A DNA stretch of 15,159 nt from a virus (taxonomy: Duplodnaviria > Heunggongvirae > Uroviricota > Caudoviricetes): the IMG/VR virus record IMGVR_UViG_2711768072_000011, one strand, 5' to 3'. The notes beneath the pieces were generated by a model. The model had not been told where the DNA came from, did not search any database, and saw only the letters and a list, made by a program, of their open reading frames with translations. A program made the translations under genes and the position numbers. How positions within the stretch are numbered: the stretch's first letter is position 1; each line of letters begins with the position of its first letter. Below, piece after piece: positions 2,874 through 15,159 of the stretch.

Positions 2874-3566
2874 TGGGCGCTGCTTCGCAGACAGGCAGAA
2901 CTTGATGGTATGCCTGCGATCAATGCCAAACGTGTTTACCGGATCATGCGCCAGAATGCGCTGTTGCTTGAGCGAAAACCTGCTGTACCGCCATCGAAAC
3001 GGGCACATACAGGCAGAGTGGCTGTGAAAGAAAGTAATCAGCGATGGTGCTCTGACGGGTTCGAGTTCCGCTGTGATAACGGAGAAAAACTGCGAGTCAC
3101 GTTCGCGCTGGACTGCTGTGACCGTGAGGCACTGCACTGGGCGGTCACTACGGGCGGCTTCAACAGTGAAACAGTACAGGACGTCATGCTGGGAGCGGTG
3201 GAACGCCGCTTCGGCAACGAGCTTCCGGCGTCTCCAGTAGAGTGGCTGACGGATAATGGTTCATGCTACCGGGCTAATGAAACACGGCAGTTTGCCCGGA
3301 TGTTGGGGCTTGAACCGAAGAGCACGGCGGTGCGGAGTCCGGAGAGTAACGGCATAGCAGAGAGCTTCGTGAAAACGATAAAGCGTGACTACATCAGTGT
3401 CATGCCCAAACCAGACGGGTTAACGGCAGCAAAGAACCTTGCAGAGGCGTTCGAGCATTATAACGAATGGCATCCGCATAGTGCACTGGGTTATCGCTCG
3501 CCACGGGAATATCTACGGCAGCAAGCCAGTAATGGGTTAAGTGATAACAGGTGTCTGGAAATATAG
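2868..3566 (+). pseudogene. insD: Truncated IS2 transposase InsD (OrfB), N-terminal part missing
   Basis: The frame is continuous from the gam/IS2 junction through the listed 2910..3566 ORF. The Met at 2910 is internal to InsD and not a real start. The expected upstream insC and frameshift window are absent. Confidence 0.8.
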
Positions 3567-3577
3567 GGGCAAATCCA
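2868..3577 (+). mobile_element. Partial IS2 (right-hand ~0.7 kb: 3' part of insD plus right terminal repeat); left half including insC is missing
   Basis: Plus-strand translation from the junction reads ...[47 protein letters not shown]... to ...[11 protein letters not shown], the C-terminal ~230 residues of IS2 InsD. The sequence then ends in ...TAGGGGCAAATCCA, which I recall as the IS2 right terminus, directly followed by emrE-internal sequence. Confidence 0.85.
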
Positions 3578-8908: not shown

Positions 8909-9045
8909 TGTTTGAGTTTTATATGGCAGAACTTCTTCGCCACCGCTGGGGGCATCTGCGCTTATATCGTTTCCCCGGTTCTGTTTTGACCGATTACCGA
9001 ATACTGAAGAATTACGCCAAAACCCTGACAGGAGCAGGAGTATGA
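8905..9045 (+). CDS. ylcG: Small protein YlcG-like, 46 aa
   Basis: ATG overlaps the rusA stop. Encodes [46 protein letters not shown], preceded by GGGGA. Position as in DLP12. Confidence 0.5.
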
Positions 9046-9130
9046 AGTCAGAGATAACAATCAACTAATACTGTTTTGTTGATTTTTGCTTGTGATTGGC
9101 GTTCTGGTCTGATTTTTGTGGAGTAAGTTG

Positions 9131-9514
9131 ATGCGTGATATTCAGATGGTTCTTGAGCGTTGGGGAGCGTGGGCGGCTAATAATCATGAAGATGTGACCT
9201 GGTCGTCCATTGCCGCCGGTTTTAAGGGATTAATTCCTTCAAAAGTAAAATCTCGCCCGCAATGTTGTGACGATGACGCGATGATCATTTGCGGGTGCAT
9301 GGCCCGTCTGAAAAAGAACAACAGCGATTTGCACGATTTATTAGTAGATTATTATGTAGTCGGTATGACATTCATGTCACTGGCAGGTAAGCATTGCTGC
9401 TCTGATGGTTATATCGGGAAAAGGTTACAGAAGGCTGAGGGCATAATTGAAGGGATGTTAATGGCATTAGATATCCGGTTAGAGATGGATATCGTTGTTA
9501 ATAACTCTAATTAA
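9131..9514 (+). CDS. quuD: Late-gene antiterminator Q (phage 82/21-type), 127 aa
   Basis: Translation [36 protein letters not shown]... fits the Q82-family antiterminator QuuD. GGAG lies 8 nt upstream of the ATG at 9131; the upstream ATG at 9116 is a less likely start. Confidence 0.8.
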
Positions 9515-9539
9515 TATGCCAATTGTTTACTAAAAATTA

Positions 9540-9566
9540 TTAAAAATGGGGCGTTGAGACGCCCCC
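9540..9566 (-). terminator. Putative intrinsic terminator acting on the minus strand (candidate nmpC terminator)
   Basis: Hairpin GGGGCGT/ACGCCCC (9548-9565) with a 4-nt loop. On the minus strand it is followed by a T-rich run (complement of CTAAAAATTATTAAAAAT). Confidence 0.45.
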
Positions 9567-9654
9567 AAAAATAAAGGGTAATATATAACAGAAGGTTTAT
9601 ATAGTTAGAAGCAAGGTTGTGCTTCTAAAGGAAGTGGCTTGAGGGAGCCACTTA

Positions 9655-9695
9655 TATGTTGGGGAGGCAACGCCTCCCGCAACATATCTTTTTCG
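9655..9695 (+). terminator. Putative plus-strand intrinsic terminator downstream of Q (tR'-like), within the late promoter-proximal region
   Basis: GC-rich hairpin GGGAGGC-AAC-GCCTCCC (9662-9678), extended by ATGTTG/CAACAT arms, followed by ATCTTTTTCG. It lies just past the nmpC stop, so it may also act bidirectionally. Confidence 0.55.
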
Positions 9696-9703
9696 TAATC
9701 AGA

Positions 9704-10801
9704 TTAGAACTGGTAAACCAGACCTACAGCAACGATGTCATCAGTGCTTACACCGAGTGCTTTAGTGAAGTCATTTTTGTCAAGCAGGTTGATTTTGTAA
9801 TCAACGAAAGTAGACATATTTTTGTTGAAGTAATAGGTTGCACCTACATCAACATATTTGACTAAGTCCTGATCGCCCCATACTCCAAGATCTTTACCTT
9901 TAGATTGCAGGTAAGCAACGGACGGACGCAGACCGAAATCGAACTGATATTGTGCAACAGCTTCGAAGTTTTGGGCTTTATTAGCAACGAAGTGATCAGC
10001 AAATACAGTCATATTCTGGGTTTCAGAATAGGTAGTGGCCAGGTAAATGTTGTTAGCGTCATATTTCAGACCTGCGGCCCAAACTTCTGCATTTTTACCG
10101 GAAGCAAATACTTCAGGAAGAACTTTCCCTGCATTAACTTGAGTGTCGGTACGATCAGATTTCGCATAAGTTGCACCGATACCGAATCCTTCGTATTCAT
10201 AGGTAGCAGAGAAACCGAAGCCATCACCGTTACCTTCAGTGTAGTTATCGAAATCGCTACGATCGTTTTTGCCTTGGTACTGAGCAGCAAAGTTCAGACC
10301 ATCAACCAGACCAAAGAAGTCGTTGTTACGATAGGTTGCAACACCAGTGGTGCGACCAGTCATGAACACATCTGTTTGGGTCCAGGTATCGCCACCGAAT
10401 TCTGGCAGAACGTCAGTCCACGCACCGATGTCGTATGCTACACCGTAGTTACGGCCGTAATCGATTGAGCCGTAGTCACCGAATTTCAGGCCTGCAAATG
10501 CAAGACGGGTTTTGTCTTTGGAGGAACCTTGAGATTCAGCGCGGTTGCCTTTGAATTCATATTCCCACTGACCGAAACCAGTCAGTTGATCGTTGATTTG
10601 GGTTTCACCTTTGAAGCCAAGACGGGCATAAGTAGTATCACCATCATCTGCATCATTAGAGGAGAAGTAGTGCTTGGCATTAACTTTCCCGTACAGATCC
10701 AGCTTGTTACTGTCTTTATTATAAATTTCAGCTGCCTGAGCAGACATCGCCATCAGTACTGATGCAGCTACAGCAGAAATTGCCACTGTTAATTTTTTCA
10801 T
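9704..10801 (-). CDS. nmpC: OmpC/PhoE-family general porin (NmpC / Lc-type), 365 aa, apparently intact
   Basis: Signal peptide [23 protein letters not shown] followed by porin motifs, ending in the C-terminal ...VGLVYQF beta-signal. Full-length ORF with no IS interruption, located antisense between Q and the lysis genes. Confidence 0.9.
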
Positions 10802-11389
10802 CGTGAGCCCTTTTTTTTGAACTATTATTAAAAAATGATGTCACTGCGCGATAAATATTCATCTAATCAATGTGATTATTTCAAGATGTAAGTTTTGGTT
10901 TCTCGTTTGATTTGTGAAGTAGATCTCTATTTTTATCTGAACTTTTTTCTATCGAATCCTATTCATAGCTCTTGGCTGAATAAAAATAAATCTATTAGCC
11001 AATTTATATTAACGGCTGTTATTTATAAGTGCTCTATAATTTGAAGGTTCAATTTAAATCGGCTAAAAATAACACTGGAAATTATTTGTTGGTTATTTGT
11101 TGAGGTTTTCTTATGTATTTGTGGTGGTGTTTTGAACACTCGGTAGCATTCTCATAAATATCATTCAGTGGTTTACGTACGTAAAAAATTGGTTATGCTG
11201 TTAAGAGTGGTTACTTCGTCACACAGCTTAACCCGCCGTCGAGCTGGTTTTTCCATTTTTTGAGTCTCGATATTAGCTGATAACTCAATACCTGAGTTAT
11301 TCACTGACTCCGAGTCTGTTACGTTTCTGCTTTTTTGCGATACGTTGTATTCCCTCAATTTACACCCGCTTTGTCTGCGAGGTGGGGTT

Positions 11390-11605
11390 ATGAAATCCAT
11401 GGATAAGTTAACAACGGGTGTCGCCTATGGCACCTCAGCAGGTAGTGCCGGTTACTGGTTTTTACAGCTGCTCGATAAAGTCACGCCCTCACAGTGGGCA
11501 GCAATAGGTGTGCTGGGTAGCCTGGTATTTGGCCTGCTGACGTACCTGACAAACCTTTATTTCAAGATTAAAGAAGATAAGCGCAAGGCTGCGAGAGGTG
11601 AATAA
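11390..11605 (+). CDS. essD: Phage-21 S-type pinholin, 71 aa, with dual-start motif
   Basis: Translation [71 protein letters not shown]. The Met1-Lys-Ser-Met4 start is the S21 holin/antiholin dual-start arrangement. It sits directly upstream of the endolysin. Confidence 0.85.
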
Positions 11606-12102
11606 TGCCTCCATCATTACGAAAAGCCGTTGCTGCTGCTATTGGTGGCGGAGCAATTGCTATAGCATCAGTGTTAATTACTGGCCCAAGTGGTAACGAT
11701 GGTCTGGAAGGTGTCAGCTACATACCATACAAAGATATTGTTGGTGTATGGACTGTATGTCACGGGCATACAGGAAAAGACATCATGCTCGGTAAAACGT
11801 ATACCAAAGCAGAATGCAAAGCCCTCCTGAATAAAGACCTTGCCACGGTCGCCAGACAAATTAACCCGTACATCAAAGTCGATATACCGGAAACAATGCG
11901 CGGCGCTCTTTACTCATTCGTTTACAACGTGGGTGCTGGCAATTTCAGAACATCGACGCTTCTTCGCAAAATAAACCAGGGCGATATCAAAGGCGCATGT
12001 GATCAGCTACGTCGCTGGACATATGCTGGCGGTAAGCAATGGAAAGGTCTCATGACTCGTCGTGAGATTGAGCGTGAAATCTGTTTGTGGGGTCAGCAAT
12101 GA
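11605..12102 (+). CDS. rrrD: SAR endolysin (T4-lysozyme-like, phage 21 R-type), 165 aa
   Basis: N-terminal Gly/Ala-rich signal-anchor-release segment ([16 protein letters not shown]), and residues E35, D44, T50 in the positions of the R21 catalytic triad. Confidence 0.9.
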
Positions 12103-12560
12103 ACAGAGTAACCGCGATTATCTCCGCTCTGGTTATCTGCATCATCGTCGGCCTGTCATGGGCTGTTAATCATTACCGTGATAACGCCATTACCTACAAA
12201 GCCCAGCGCGACAAAAATGCCAGAGAACTGAAGCTGGCGAACGCGGCAATTACTGACATGCAGATGCGTCAGCGTGATGTTGCTGCGCTCGATGCAAAAT
12301 ACACGAAGGAGTTAGCTGATGCGAAAGCTGAAAATGATGCTCTGCGTGATGATGTTGCCGCTGGTCGTCGTCGGTTGCACATCAAAGCAGTCTGTCAGTC
12401 AGTGCGTGAAGCCACCACCGCCTCCGGCGTGGATAATGCAGCCTCCCCCCGACTGGCAGACACCGCTGAACGGGATTATTTCACCCTCAGAGAGAGGCTG
12501 ATCACTATGCAAAAACAACTGGAAGGAACCCAGAAGTATATTAATGAGCAATGCAGATAG
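12099..12560 (+). CDS. rzpD: Rz inner-membrane spanin (i-spanin), 153 aa
   Basis: ATG overlaps the endolysin stop (ATGA). N-terminal transmembrane segment, then a coiled-coil-rich periplasmic region. Position after the endolysin. Confidence 0.85.
12319..12501 (+). CDS. rzoD: Rz1 outer-membrane lipoprotein spanin (o-spanin), 60 aa, embedded in the +1 frame of Rz
   Basis: Translation [24 protein letters not shown]... has a lipobox (VVGC) and a proline run (PPPPP). Entirely contained within rzpD in a different frame, the classic Rz/Rz1 arrangement. Confidence 0.8.
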
Positions 12561-12591: not shown

Positions 12592-12885
12592 TTATTGTGA
12601 GCAATACACACGCGCTTCCAGCGGAGTATAAATGCCTAAAGTAATAAAACCGAGCAATCCATTTACGAATGTTTGCTGGGTTTCTGTTTTAACAACATTT
12701 TCTGCGCCGCCACAAATTTTGGCTGCATCAACAGTTTTCTCCTGTCCAATTCCCGAAACGAAGAAGTGATGGGTGATGGTTTCCTTTGGTGTTACTGCTG
12801 TCGGTTTGTTTCCAACAGTAAACGTCTGTTGAGCACATCCTGTAATAAGCATTGCCAGAGCGGCAGAAAACAACATTTTTTTCAT
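12592..12885 (-). CDS. borD: Bor-family outer-membrane lipoprotein, 97 aa
   Basis: From the Met at 12885: MKKMLFSAALAMLITGCAQQ..., with lipobox LITGC. Matches lambda Bor/DLP12 BorD. Antisense to the late operon. Confidence 0.85.
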   Translation of the reverse strand: MKKMLFSAALAMLITGCAQQTFTVGNKPTAVTPKETITHHFFVSGIGQEKTVDAAKICGGAENVVKTETQQTFVNGLLGFITLGIYTPLEARVYCSQ

Positions 12886-13830: not shown

Positions 13831-14376
13831 ATGGAAGTCAACAAAAAGCAGCTGGCTGACATTTTCGGTGCGAGTATCCGTACCATTCAGAACTGGCAGG
13901 AACAGGGAATGCCCGTTCTGCGAGGCGGTGGCAAGGGTAATGAGGTGCTTTATGACTCTGCCGCCGTTATAAGATGGTATGCCGAAAGGGATGCTGAAAT
14001 TGAGAACGAAAAGCTGCGCCGGGAAGTTGAAGAACTGCGGCAGGCCAGCGAGGCAGATCTCCAGCCAGGGACTATTGAGTACGAACGCCATCGACTTACG
14101 CGTGCGCAGGCCGACGCACAGGAGCTGAAAAATGCCAGAGACTCCGCTGAAGTGGTGGAAACCGCATTCTGTACTTTCGTGCTGTCGCGGATCGCAGGTG
14201 AAATTGCCAGTATTCTCGACGGGATCCCCCTGTCGGTGCAGCGGCGTTTTCCGGAACTGGAAAACCGACATGTTGATTTCCTGAAACGGGATATCATCAA
14301 AGCCATGAACAAAGCAGCCGCGCTGGATGAACTGATACCGGGGTTGCTGAGTGAATATATCGAACAGTCAGGTTAA
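13831..14376 (+). CDS. nohD: Terminase small subunit (lambda Nu1 homologue), 181 aa
   Basis: Translation MEVNKKQLADIFGASIRTIQNWQEQGMPVLRGGGKGNEVLYDSAAVIRWYAERDAEIENEKLRREVEELRQ... is essentially lambda gpNu1 (winged-helix N-terminus). Follows cos. Confidence 0.9.
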   Translation: MEVNKKQLADIFGASIRTIQNWQEQGMPVLRGGGKGNEVLYDSAAVIRWYAERDAEIENEKLRREVEELRQASEADLQPGTIEYERHRLTRAQADAQELKNARDSAEVVETAFCTFVLSRIAGEIASILDGIPLSVQRRFPELENRHVDFLKRDIIKAMNKAAALDELIPGLLSEYIEQSG

Positions 14377-15159
14377 CAGGCTGCGGCATTTTGTCCGCGC
14401 CGGGCTTCGCTCACTGTTCAGGCCGGAGCCACAGACCGCCGTTGAATGGGCGGATGCCAATTACTATCTCCCGAAAGAATCCGCATACCAGGAAGGGCGC
14501 TGGGAAACACTGCCCTTTCAGCGGGCCATCATGAATGCGATGGGCAGCGACTACATCCGTGAGGTGAATGTGGTGAAGTCTGCCCGTGTCGGTTATTCCA
14601 AAATGCTGTTGGGTGTTTATGCCTACTTCATAGAGCATAAGCAGCGCAACACCCTTATCTGGTTGCCGACGGATGGTGATGCCGAGAACTTTATGAAAAC
14701 CCACGTTGAGCCGACTATTCGTGATATTCCGTCGCTGCTGGCGCTGGCCCCGTGGTATGGCAAAAAGCACCGGGATAACACGCTCACCATGAAGCGTTTC
14801 ACAAAGCGTATTGAAGGCTCGGTCTGGCCAAAGTCCATCCGTGGCTCCACGCCCAAAGTGAGAGGCACCTGTCAGATTGAGCGTGCAGCCAGTGAATCCC
14901 CGCATTTTATGCGTTTTCATGTTGCCTGCCCGCACTGCGGGGAGGAGCAGTACCTTAAATTTGGCGATAAAGAGACGCCGTTTGGCCTCAAATGGACGCC
15001 GGATGATCCCTCCAGCGTGTTTTATCTCTGCGAACATAATGCCTGCGTCATCCGCCAGCAGGAGCTGGACTTCACTGATGCCCGTTATATCTGCGAAAAG
15101 ACCGGGATCTGGACCCGTGATGGCATTCTCTGGTTTTCGTCATCCGGTGAAGAGATTGA
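14351..15159 (+). CDS. Terminase large subunit (lambda gpA-like), 5' part; the frame stays open to the window edge but appears to carry a ~47-codon in-frame deletion
   Basis: GTG start overlaps the Nu1 3' end. Translation MNISNSQVNRLRHFVRAGLRSLFRPEPQTAVEWADANYYLPKESAYQEGRWETLPFQRAIMNAMGSDYIREVNVVKSARVGYS... matches gpA including the Walker A-like KSARVGYS. After ...TLTMKRFT the sequence jumps to KRIEGSVWPKSIRGSTPKVRG..., skipping the segment that in lambda gpA (from memory) contains the Walker B/E179 region. No stop codon in frame within the window; not listed in the ORF track because it runs off the end. Confidence 0.75.
   Translation, partial: MNISNSQVNRLRHFVRAGLRSLFRPEPQTAVEWADANYYLPKESAYQEGRWETLPFQRAIMNAMGSDYIREVNVVKSARVGYSKMLLGVYAYFIEHKQRNTLIWLPTDGDAENFMKTHVEPTIRDIPSLLALAPWYGKKHRDNTLTMKRFTKRIEGSVWPKSIRGSTPKVRGTCQIERAASESPHFMRFHVACPHCGEEQYLKFGDKETPFGLKWTPDDPSSVFYLCEHNACVIRQQELDFTDARYICEKTGIWTRDGILWFSSSGEEI

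Follow-up and report, generated by a model that had tools for sequence, protein, structure and literature searches.

An intact lc/nmpC porin gene at the quuD-lysis junction of a defective DLP12-like prophage

Introduction

The closest described relatives of the gene analyzed here are lc of the viable phage PA-2 and nmpC of the prophage DLP12 (qsr') in Escherichia coli K-12. The PA-2 record (GenBank J02580.1) annotates the lc coding sequence, a 23-codon signal peptide, and two CRP sites. In K-12 MG1655, nmpC (b0553) is annotated as a pseudogene consisting of two fragments with IS5B between them. The K-12 promoter PnmpC has been described as being of the typical sigma-70 kind; it carries two CRP sites, starts at a G, and is active enough to drive the only detectable transcript of the IS5 transposase (ins5A) (PMC11677980). 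The relationship of Salmonella OmpD to the NmpC/Lc-type porin has also been stated (PMC3333887), and post-transcriptional repression of ompC has been attributed to IpeX (PMC3333887, PMC5745476).

Here, we compare with these systems a porin gene found in a 15,159-nucleotide stretch of DNA recorded as a tailed-phage sequence (IMG/VR record IMGVR_UViG_2711768072_000011). This whole stretch is referred to below as the window.

Results

The porin gene and its neighbors

The porin gene lies on the minus strand, opposite to the antiterminator gene on its left and the lysis genes on its right, and the same layout is found in the annotated loci that match it. The genes of the junction are as follows.

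9131 to 9514, plus strand: quuD, Q-family late antiterminator of 127 aa (PF06530, E=8.5e-54; RefSeq annotation of near-identical loci)
9704 to 10801, minus strand: lc/nmpC porin gene, 365 codons and stop (open reading frame list and translation)
10733 to 10801, minus strand: signal peptide of the porin, codons 1-23 (translation; in agreement with the 23-codon sig_peptide of the PA-2 record)
9707 to 10732, minus strand: mature lc/nmpC porin
11390 to 11605, plus strand: essD, P21-type holin with dual start (Pfam Phage_holin_2_1; RefSeq annotation of matching loci)
11605 to 12102, plus strand: rrrD, lysozyme (Pfam Phage_lysozyme; RefSeq annotation of matching loci)
12099 to 12560, plus strand: rzpD/rzoD (RefSeq annotation of matching loci), at the end of a lysis cassette that occupies 11390 to 12560

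The translation of 365 aa contains no internal stops; its signal peptide would be cleaved between MKK...SAQA and AEIYNK, and its C-terminus reads ...VGLVYQF. Residues 29-365 match the Pfam profile PF00267 (Porin_1) over positions 1-337 of 337 with E=1e-156. The protein scored 526.5 against the NCBIfam OmpC subfamily model, above the cutoff of 484, and fell below the cutoffs of the PhoE and OmpF equivalog models. The best solved homologues were OmpC and OmpK36 chains (E ~1e-135, residues 24-365). The protein thus shows a full-length profile match, a cleavable signal peptide, and a C-terminal aromatic residue, as is expected of a general porin.

A first-pass annotation of this DNA, which gave no strand and ended its interval at 11389, the base before the essD start codon, had described a full-length porin gene with its own AT-rich upstream region at the junction of Q and the lysis genes. 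All of this agrees with the present analysis, in which the G+C content was 44.2% in the porin open reading frame, 29.5% in the upstream region (10802-11170), and 44.9% in the whole window.

Comparison with PA-2, K-12, and other porins

The window and PA-2 lc share 99.1% DNA identity over 1,951 bp (window 9500-11450), a match that spans the 3' untranslated region (UTR), the open reading frame, the upstream region, and the start of the holin gene, with the same orientation and neighbors. The two porins are identical at 363 of 365 residues, the differences being R99H and V154F. The loci differ by seven upstream point changes and by one A at 11229 that the window lacks, and PA-2 is a viable phage, whereas the porin of the window belongs to a defective prophage.

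The resemblance to DLP12 of K-12 extends to the locus and to the gene order, ybcK ... rusA, ylcG, quuD, nmpC, essD, rrrD, rzpD, bor. The 189-bp spacer between Q and the porin gene is identical; in contrast, the upstream regions share 94.6% identity, and 16 bp, at window 11327-11342, are deleted in K-12. The site at which K-12 nmpC is interrupted could be placed in the window from the K-12 annotation, the junction sequences, and reconstruction of the open reading frame.

9762 to 9765, no strand assigned: TTAG (CTAA on the gene strand), the IS5B insertion site of K-12 nmpC

This TTAG is single-copy and uninterrupted in the window. Removal of IS5 and one 4-bp target copy from K-12 nmpC restored an open reading frame of 365 aa, whose product is identical to the window porin at 363 of 365 residues (G149Q, T151A). 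The disruption of K-12 nmpC by an insertion sequence and the kinship with PA-2 Lc, both of which the first-pass annotation had put forward together with the alignments that would check them, are therefore confirmed.

Two further strains carry the locus in the same form. E. coli AW1.7 and G4/9 (porin WP_000737266.1) share with the window, without a single nucleotide difference, the open reading frame, the 3' UTR, the Q-porin spacer, quuD, and essD. However, the prophage backbone on the left is unlike that of the window, G4/9 carries other IS elements, and AW1.7 has a second matching place in its genome (two in total). The K-12 paralogues OmpC, OmpF, and PhoE are 62%, 58%, and 62% identical in amino acid sequence to the window porin; they share its Pfam family and length class, but the window porin is prophage-borne. 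By every sequence criterion tested, the window porin is an Lc/NmpC porin.

Two small open reading frames that overlap the cassette were considered as genes and rejected. The "ORF1" of the PA-2 record (9656-9865, plus strand) and an open reading frame of 75 aa (11173-11400, minus strand) have no Pfam match, and both are broken in K-12, the former by IS5 and the latter by the 16-bp deletion.

Allelic variation was observed among porins in phage genomes. The first ~200 residues of the porins of phages 2G7b, ev207, ev099, and ev017 (L014-L017) are identical to those of the window protein, and the differences are confined to the C-terminal half, where they form short blocks with indels, e.g. RTDV---TEANG. 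This mosaic is consistent with loop variation or recombination. The porin of phage PhiR68_2 (L018 504-1647) is annotated as two overlapping coding sequences, which suggests a frameshifted allele in that phage genome record.

The 3' untranslated region

Downstream of the stop codon, the gene has a structured and highly conserved tail.

9538 to 9703, minus strand: lc 3' UTR, 166 nt, with four or five stem-loops (terminator scan, fold, and conservation)

The terminator scan placed an intrinsic terminator at the end of this region, with a hairpin at 9565 to 9548 on the minus strand, GGGGCGTCTCAACGCCCC, followed by a T-run. The predicted fold had an energy of -63.4 kcal/mol and z = -8.7, and 0 of 200 shuffled sequences folded as well. 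All 166 nucleotides are identical in PA-2, K-12, AW1.7, and G4/9, and even phage alleles with a markedly different C-terminal half of the porin show only a few substitutions here. In stem 2, two changes occur among the available alleles, which differ at few positions only, and these changes are not compensatory. A search of 9000-11700 against Rfam at permissive E-values returned no model for the 3' UTR and only a chance snoRNA hit (E=0.95). We take the 166-nt region to be the published ipeX element, which Castillo-Keller et al. (2006) reportedly mapped to the nmpC/lc 3' UTR.

The upstream region and a putative late promoter

The interval between the porin start codon and the holin gene contains two blocks with different composition, and the following features were assigned to them.

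10802 to 11170, minus strand: AT-rich lc leader and regulatory region (29.5% G+C; 98.6% identical to PA-2)
10884 to 10879 and 10860 to 10855, minus strand: tentative lc promoter, -35 TTGAAA and -10 GAATAT with an 18-nt spacer, start near the G at 10849 (hand reading)
10913 to 10928: CRP-like site with core TGTGAAGTAGATCTCT, which matches the consensus half-sites at 8/10 positions (annotated at 10910-10930 in the PA-2 record)
11171 to 11252, plus strand: putative pR', short leader, and tR' (resemblance to the segment after Q in Stx phage BP-4795)
11172 to 11177 and 11194 to 11199, plus strand: putative pR' hexamers, -35 TTTACG and -10 TATGCT with a 16-nt spacer

Neither the lc promoter nor the putative pR' was called by a consensus promoter scan, and both were read by hand; the hexamer assignment for lc is tentative. 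The CRP-like site would be centered near -71.5 relative to the tentative lc start. The second CRP site of the PA-2 record corresponds to 11206-11226, ~405 bp upstream of the lc start codon. It coincides there with the first nucleotides of the putative late transcript, and if the site has a target at all, this may be pR' and not lc.

The putative late promoter was placed by comparison with Stx phages. A distant search showed that many Stx phage records match the query in two pieces within ~505 bp, namely Q and a short segment near query position 2153. In BP-4795, this segment starts inside the last codons of Q and is 78% identical to window 11171-11252 over 82 bp (E=5e-14). The -10 of the BP-4795 counterpart is TATCAT, and TAAGAGTGGTTAC is fully conserved between the two sequences. 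In the window, a hairpin followed by TTTTT, the putative tR', ends near 11252. The annotation of phage 21, whose Q belongs to the same Pfam family as quuD, places pR', a Q-binding element, a sigma-dependent pause element, and a terminator within ~85 bp directly after Q, and the geometry of this block matches that of window 11171-11252. A step in G+C content, from 29.5% to 42.7%, also falls exactly at 11171. From these comparisons, we infer that 11171-11252 represents pR'-tR'.

This segment is 100% conserved in PA-2, K-12, AW1.7, G4/9, and JNE141411 except at two positions. An A after 11229 (CAGCTTA[A]ACCCG) is present in all five and missing in the window only; the position belongs to the loop of the putative tR' hairpin, and the loss may reflect either genuine variation or a sequencing error in a homopolymer. 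K-12 has a T-to-G change in the 3' arm of the same hairpin. The hairpin is weak in the window (z = -1.2), whereas the K-12 stem, CCCGC/GCGGG, is stronger.

The porin cassette (~9515-11170) appears, then, to be situated between Q and pR'. With pR' to the right of the cassette, Q-dependent late transcription would not cross lc, and the lc promoter and the putative pR' would be divergent. The arrangement in BP-4795 is different: Q is immediately followed by the pR'-like segment, with stx farther downstream on the same strand, whereas in the window the porin cassette separates Q from that segment and is encoded on the opposite strand. The distance from the end of the Q match (position 2835 of the BP-4795 sequence L006) to the pR'-like segment (2924) is 89 bp, compared with a gap of 1,708 bp in the window.

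The Stx phages and phage Lambda_ev087 nevertheless share with the window the insertion of an accessory gene at the Q-lysis junction, and their Q proteins belong to one family with that of the window, at 81-86% amino acid identity: quuD is 81% identical to Q of BP-4795 and 86% identical to that of Lambda_ev087, compared with 33% identity to Q21. Lambda_ev087 has a different cargo, a lipocalin Blc gene (L007 3066-3590, minus strand), directly after Q and thus alike in orientation and place to the porin gene; no pR'-like segment was found within the 5.4 kb of Lambda_ev087 examined. The cassette is therefore absent in BP-4795 between conserved flanks and is replaced by another cargo in Lambda_ev087, the pattern of presence and absence expected of a moron. 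Other traits of a moron are only partly apparent: a terminator was located, but the promoter comes from hand reading and the K-12 literature, and the low G+C content is confined to the upstream region. The first-pass annotation had placed the porin at the classic moron site of lambdoid phages. This is correct insofar as the gene is found between Q and the holin gene, but the site apparently lies upstream of pR', unlike that of the Stx-type cargo downstream of pR'/tR'.

State of the prophage

The window is collinear from ybcK to nohD with the argU-site prophage of JNE141411 and with DLP12 of K-12, and ybcK, ybcL, and ybcM follow the K-12 order. A 701-bp segment (2877-3577) replaces kil, cI, cro, O, P, and ren of JNE141411 (L003 8877-13739). 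This segment encodes the C-terminal part of an IS3-family (IS2-like) transposase, and it truncates emrE, which has lost ~the first 30 codons and whose remnant runs to 3821. A search of 5,426 complete genomes did not return the exact junction of gam and the IS. The large terminase gene (start 14351; 14351-15159) has an in-frame 141-bp deletion at 14802 relative to JNE141411, by which 47 residues, including ...VDVAGYDEL..., are lost; this deletion probably inactivates the enzyme.

Because the immunity and replication genes are lost and the terminase gene carries this deletion, the element cannot be an active phage, and since the prophage is defective, the porin gene is in effect a fixed chromosomal gene. 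The first-pass annotation had described the gene as a lysogenic-conversion moron. Its origin as phage-derived porin cargo is upheld; however, judged from the gene content of the window, it is a resident gene of a cryptic prophage and not a case of conversion by an active phage.

Distribution of the locus

Among 5,426 complete E. coli genomes, 2,464 contain the Q-porin-holin module at 80% or more query coverage, as do 36 phage records, for some of which the host is listed as ECOR13, K-12, or C. The exact window protein occurs on at least 1,000 contigs in a large protein collection, where it bears source names such as "outer membrane porin protein LC" and "porin OmpC". A 151-bp probe over the IS5 site matched 2,098 genomes, with a class of 80-90% identity that consists in part of the paralogue annotated ompC, and the site was uninterrupted in 1,798 of them. 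Among the split examples listed, three are near 540-575 kb, the region that holds DLP12 in K-12, and a fourth is near 3.2 Mb.

Since the IS5 site is uninterrupted in most of the probe-matched genomes, an intact lc/nmpC is the usual state in E. coli, and the IS5-disrupted gene of K-12 is the exception. The copy in the window is intact, as the first-pass annotation had emphasized, but this property is common in E. coli and does not distinguish the strain.

Discussion

Our analysis indicates, with a probability of about 0.92, that the window carries an intact allele of lc/nmpC, present as a self-contained and oppositely oriented cargo at the quuD/lysis junction of a DLP12-like prophage that occupies the argU site of E. 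coli and is defective. The gene, its IS5-split counterpart in K-12, its phage origin, its regulation, and the RNA of its 3' UTR are already known from the literature. What we add is modest, namely the defective state of the prophage in the window and the putative location of the cassette ahead of pR'.

As far as can be judged from its sequence, the gene is probably functional. From what is known of the family and of PnmpC, lc would have a sigma-70, CRP-dependent promoter of its own that is active in the prophage state, and the precursor would be exported by the Sec system and assembled by BAM into a trimeric, 16-stranded pore like those of OmpC and OmpF. The 3' UTR, if it acts as ipeX, would lower OmpC and OmpF post-transcriptionally, so that the phage porin would partly replace the host porins. 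Such a down-shift of OmpC and OmpF may alter permeability as well as phage and colicin receptors, and in the original phage the replacement of porins would limit the adsorption of OmpC-dependent phages.

The alternative that survives best, although we consider it unlikely, is that the gene is intact but quiescent, giving no useful expression and remaining as a neutral passenger of a decaying prophage. Silencing could arise, for example, by an H-NS-type mechanism acting on the upstream region of 29.5% G+C, or through a missing activator. The very AT-rich upstream region and the decay of the surrounding prophage agree with this explanation, and PMC11677980 argues that nmpC is perhaps useless to the cell. 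The title of Prilipov et al. (1998) applies the word "quiescent" to the porin gene nmpC of E. coli B, and intact copies of nmpC can therefore, going by that label, be silent. Against this, the K-12 promoter drives the only detectable ins5A transcript (PMC11677980), NmpC was detected in 89% of UPEC outer-membrane proteomes (PMC9609314), and nmpC was induced at 37 C in CFT073 (PMC12890032). Moreover, the open reading frame, the 3' UTR, and the promoter region are near-invariant across lineages despite the loss of neighboring prophage genes. NmpC is reportedly highly expressed in AW1.7, and its overexpression is reported to raise heat survival (Ruan et al. 2011, as cited in later work). AW1.7 has two matching places, and the published NmpC protein is thus likely, though not certain, to come from the allele identical to that of the window.

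It is far less probable that the window belongs to an active, inducible PA-2-like converting phage in which the porin is a present superinfection-exclusion device. The 99.1% identity to PA-2 and the occurrence of the cassette in 36 phage genome records, some with ECOR13, K-12, and C hosts, would suit such a phage; however, the IS3-family fragment stands in place of kil, cI, cro, O, P, and ren, the large terminase has lost 47 codons in frame, and the element is at the DLP12 position with ybcK, ybcL, and ybcM ordered as in K-12. Finally, a chromosomal core porin of the ompC/ompD type misassigned to a prophage can be dismissed with near certainty. The OmpC subfamily is indeed the best NCBIfam model, and the identical protein is called "porin OmpC" in many database entries, but the identity to K-12 OmpC is only 62%, the direct flanks are the Q, holin, endolysin, and spanin genes, and the same DNA is found in phage genomes.

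Within the preferred reading of the locus as resident prophage cargo, a more elaborate organization can be imagined, which we regard as doubtful, somewhat more so than quiescence. The porin and the regulatory RNA of its 3' UTR could form a two-part device for swapping porins, inserted between Q and the target promoter of Q, with the lc promoter and pR' diverging from a shared AT-rich region that contains CRP-like sites. The catabolite state of the cell could then co-control porin replacement and the retained lysis cassette, and readthrough of the lc terminator would be antisense to Q.

The main value of these results lies in annotation. The gene in the window should be named lc/nmpC, an intact prophage porin, and not OmpC. 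The strain is expected to carry a third or fourth general porin, and an extra porin can change how sensitive a cell is to phages and colicins, how permeable it is to antibiotics, and, reportedly, how well it tolerates heat. Where the cassette lies relative to pR' clarifies, in a small way, how such cargo may be insulated from late transcription. None of these results raises a new question.

Two further observations concern related cargo. The P1-like plasmid prophage P7 contains an annotated nmpC precursor gene (AF503408.1 25399-26709) with ~74% DNA identity to the window porin. In the window itself, a Bor/Iss-type lipoprotein gene (12592-12885, minus strand; Pfam Lambda_Bor, E=6e-31) follows the lysis cassette and is a second oppositely oriented cargo gene of the same prophage.
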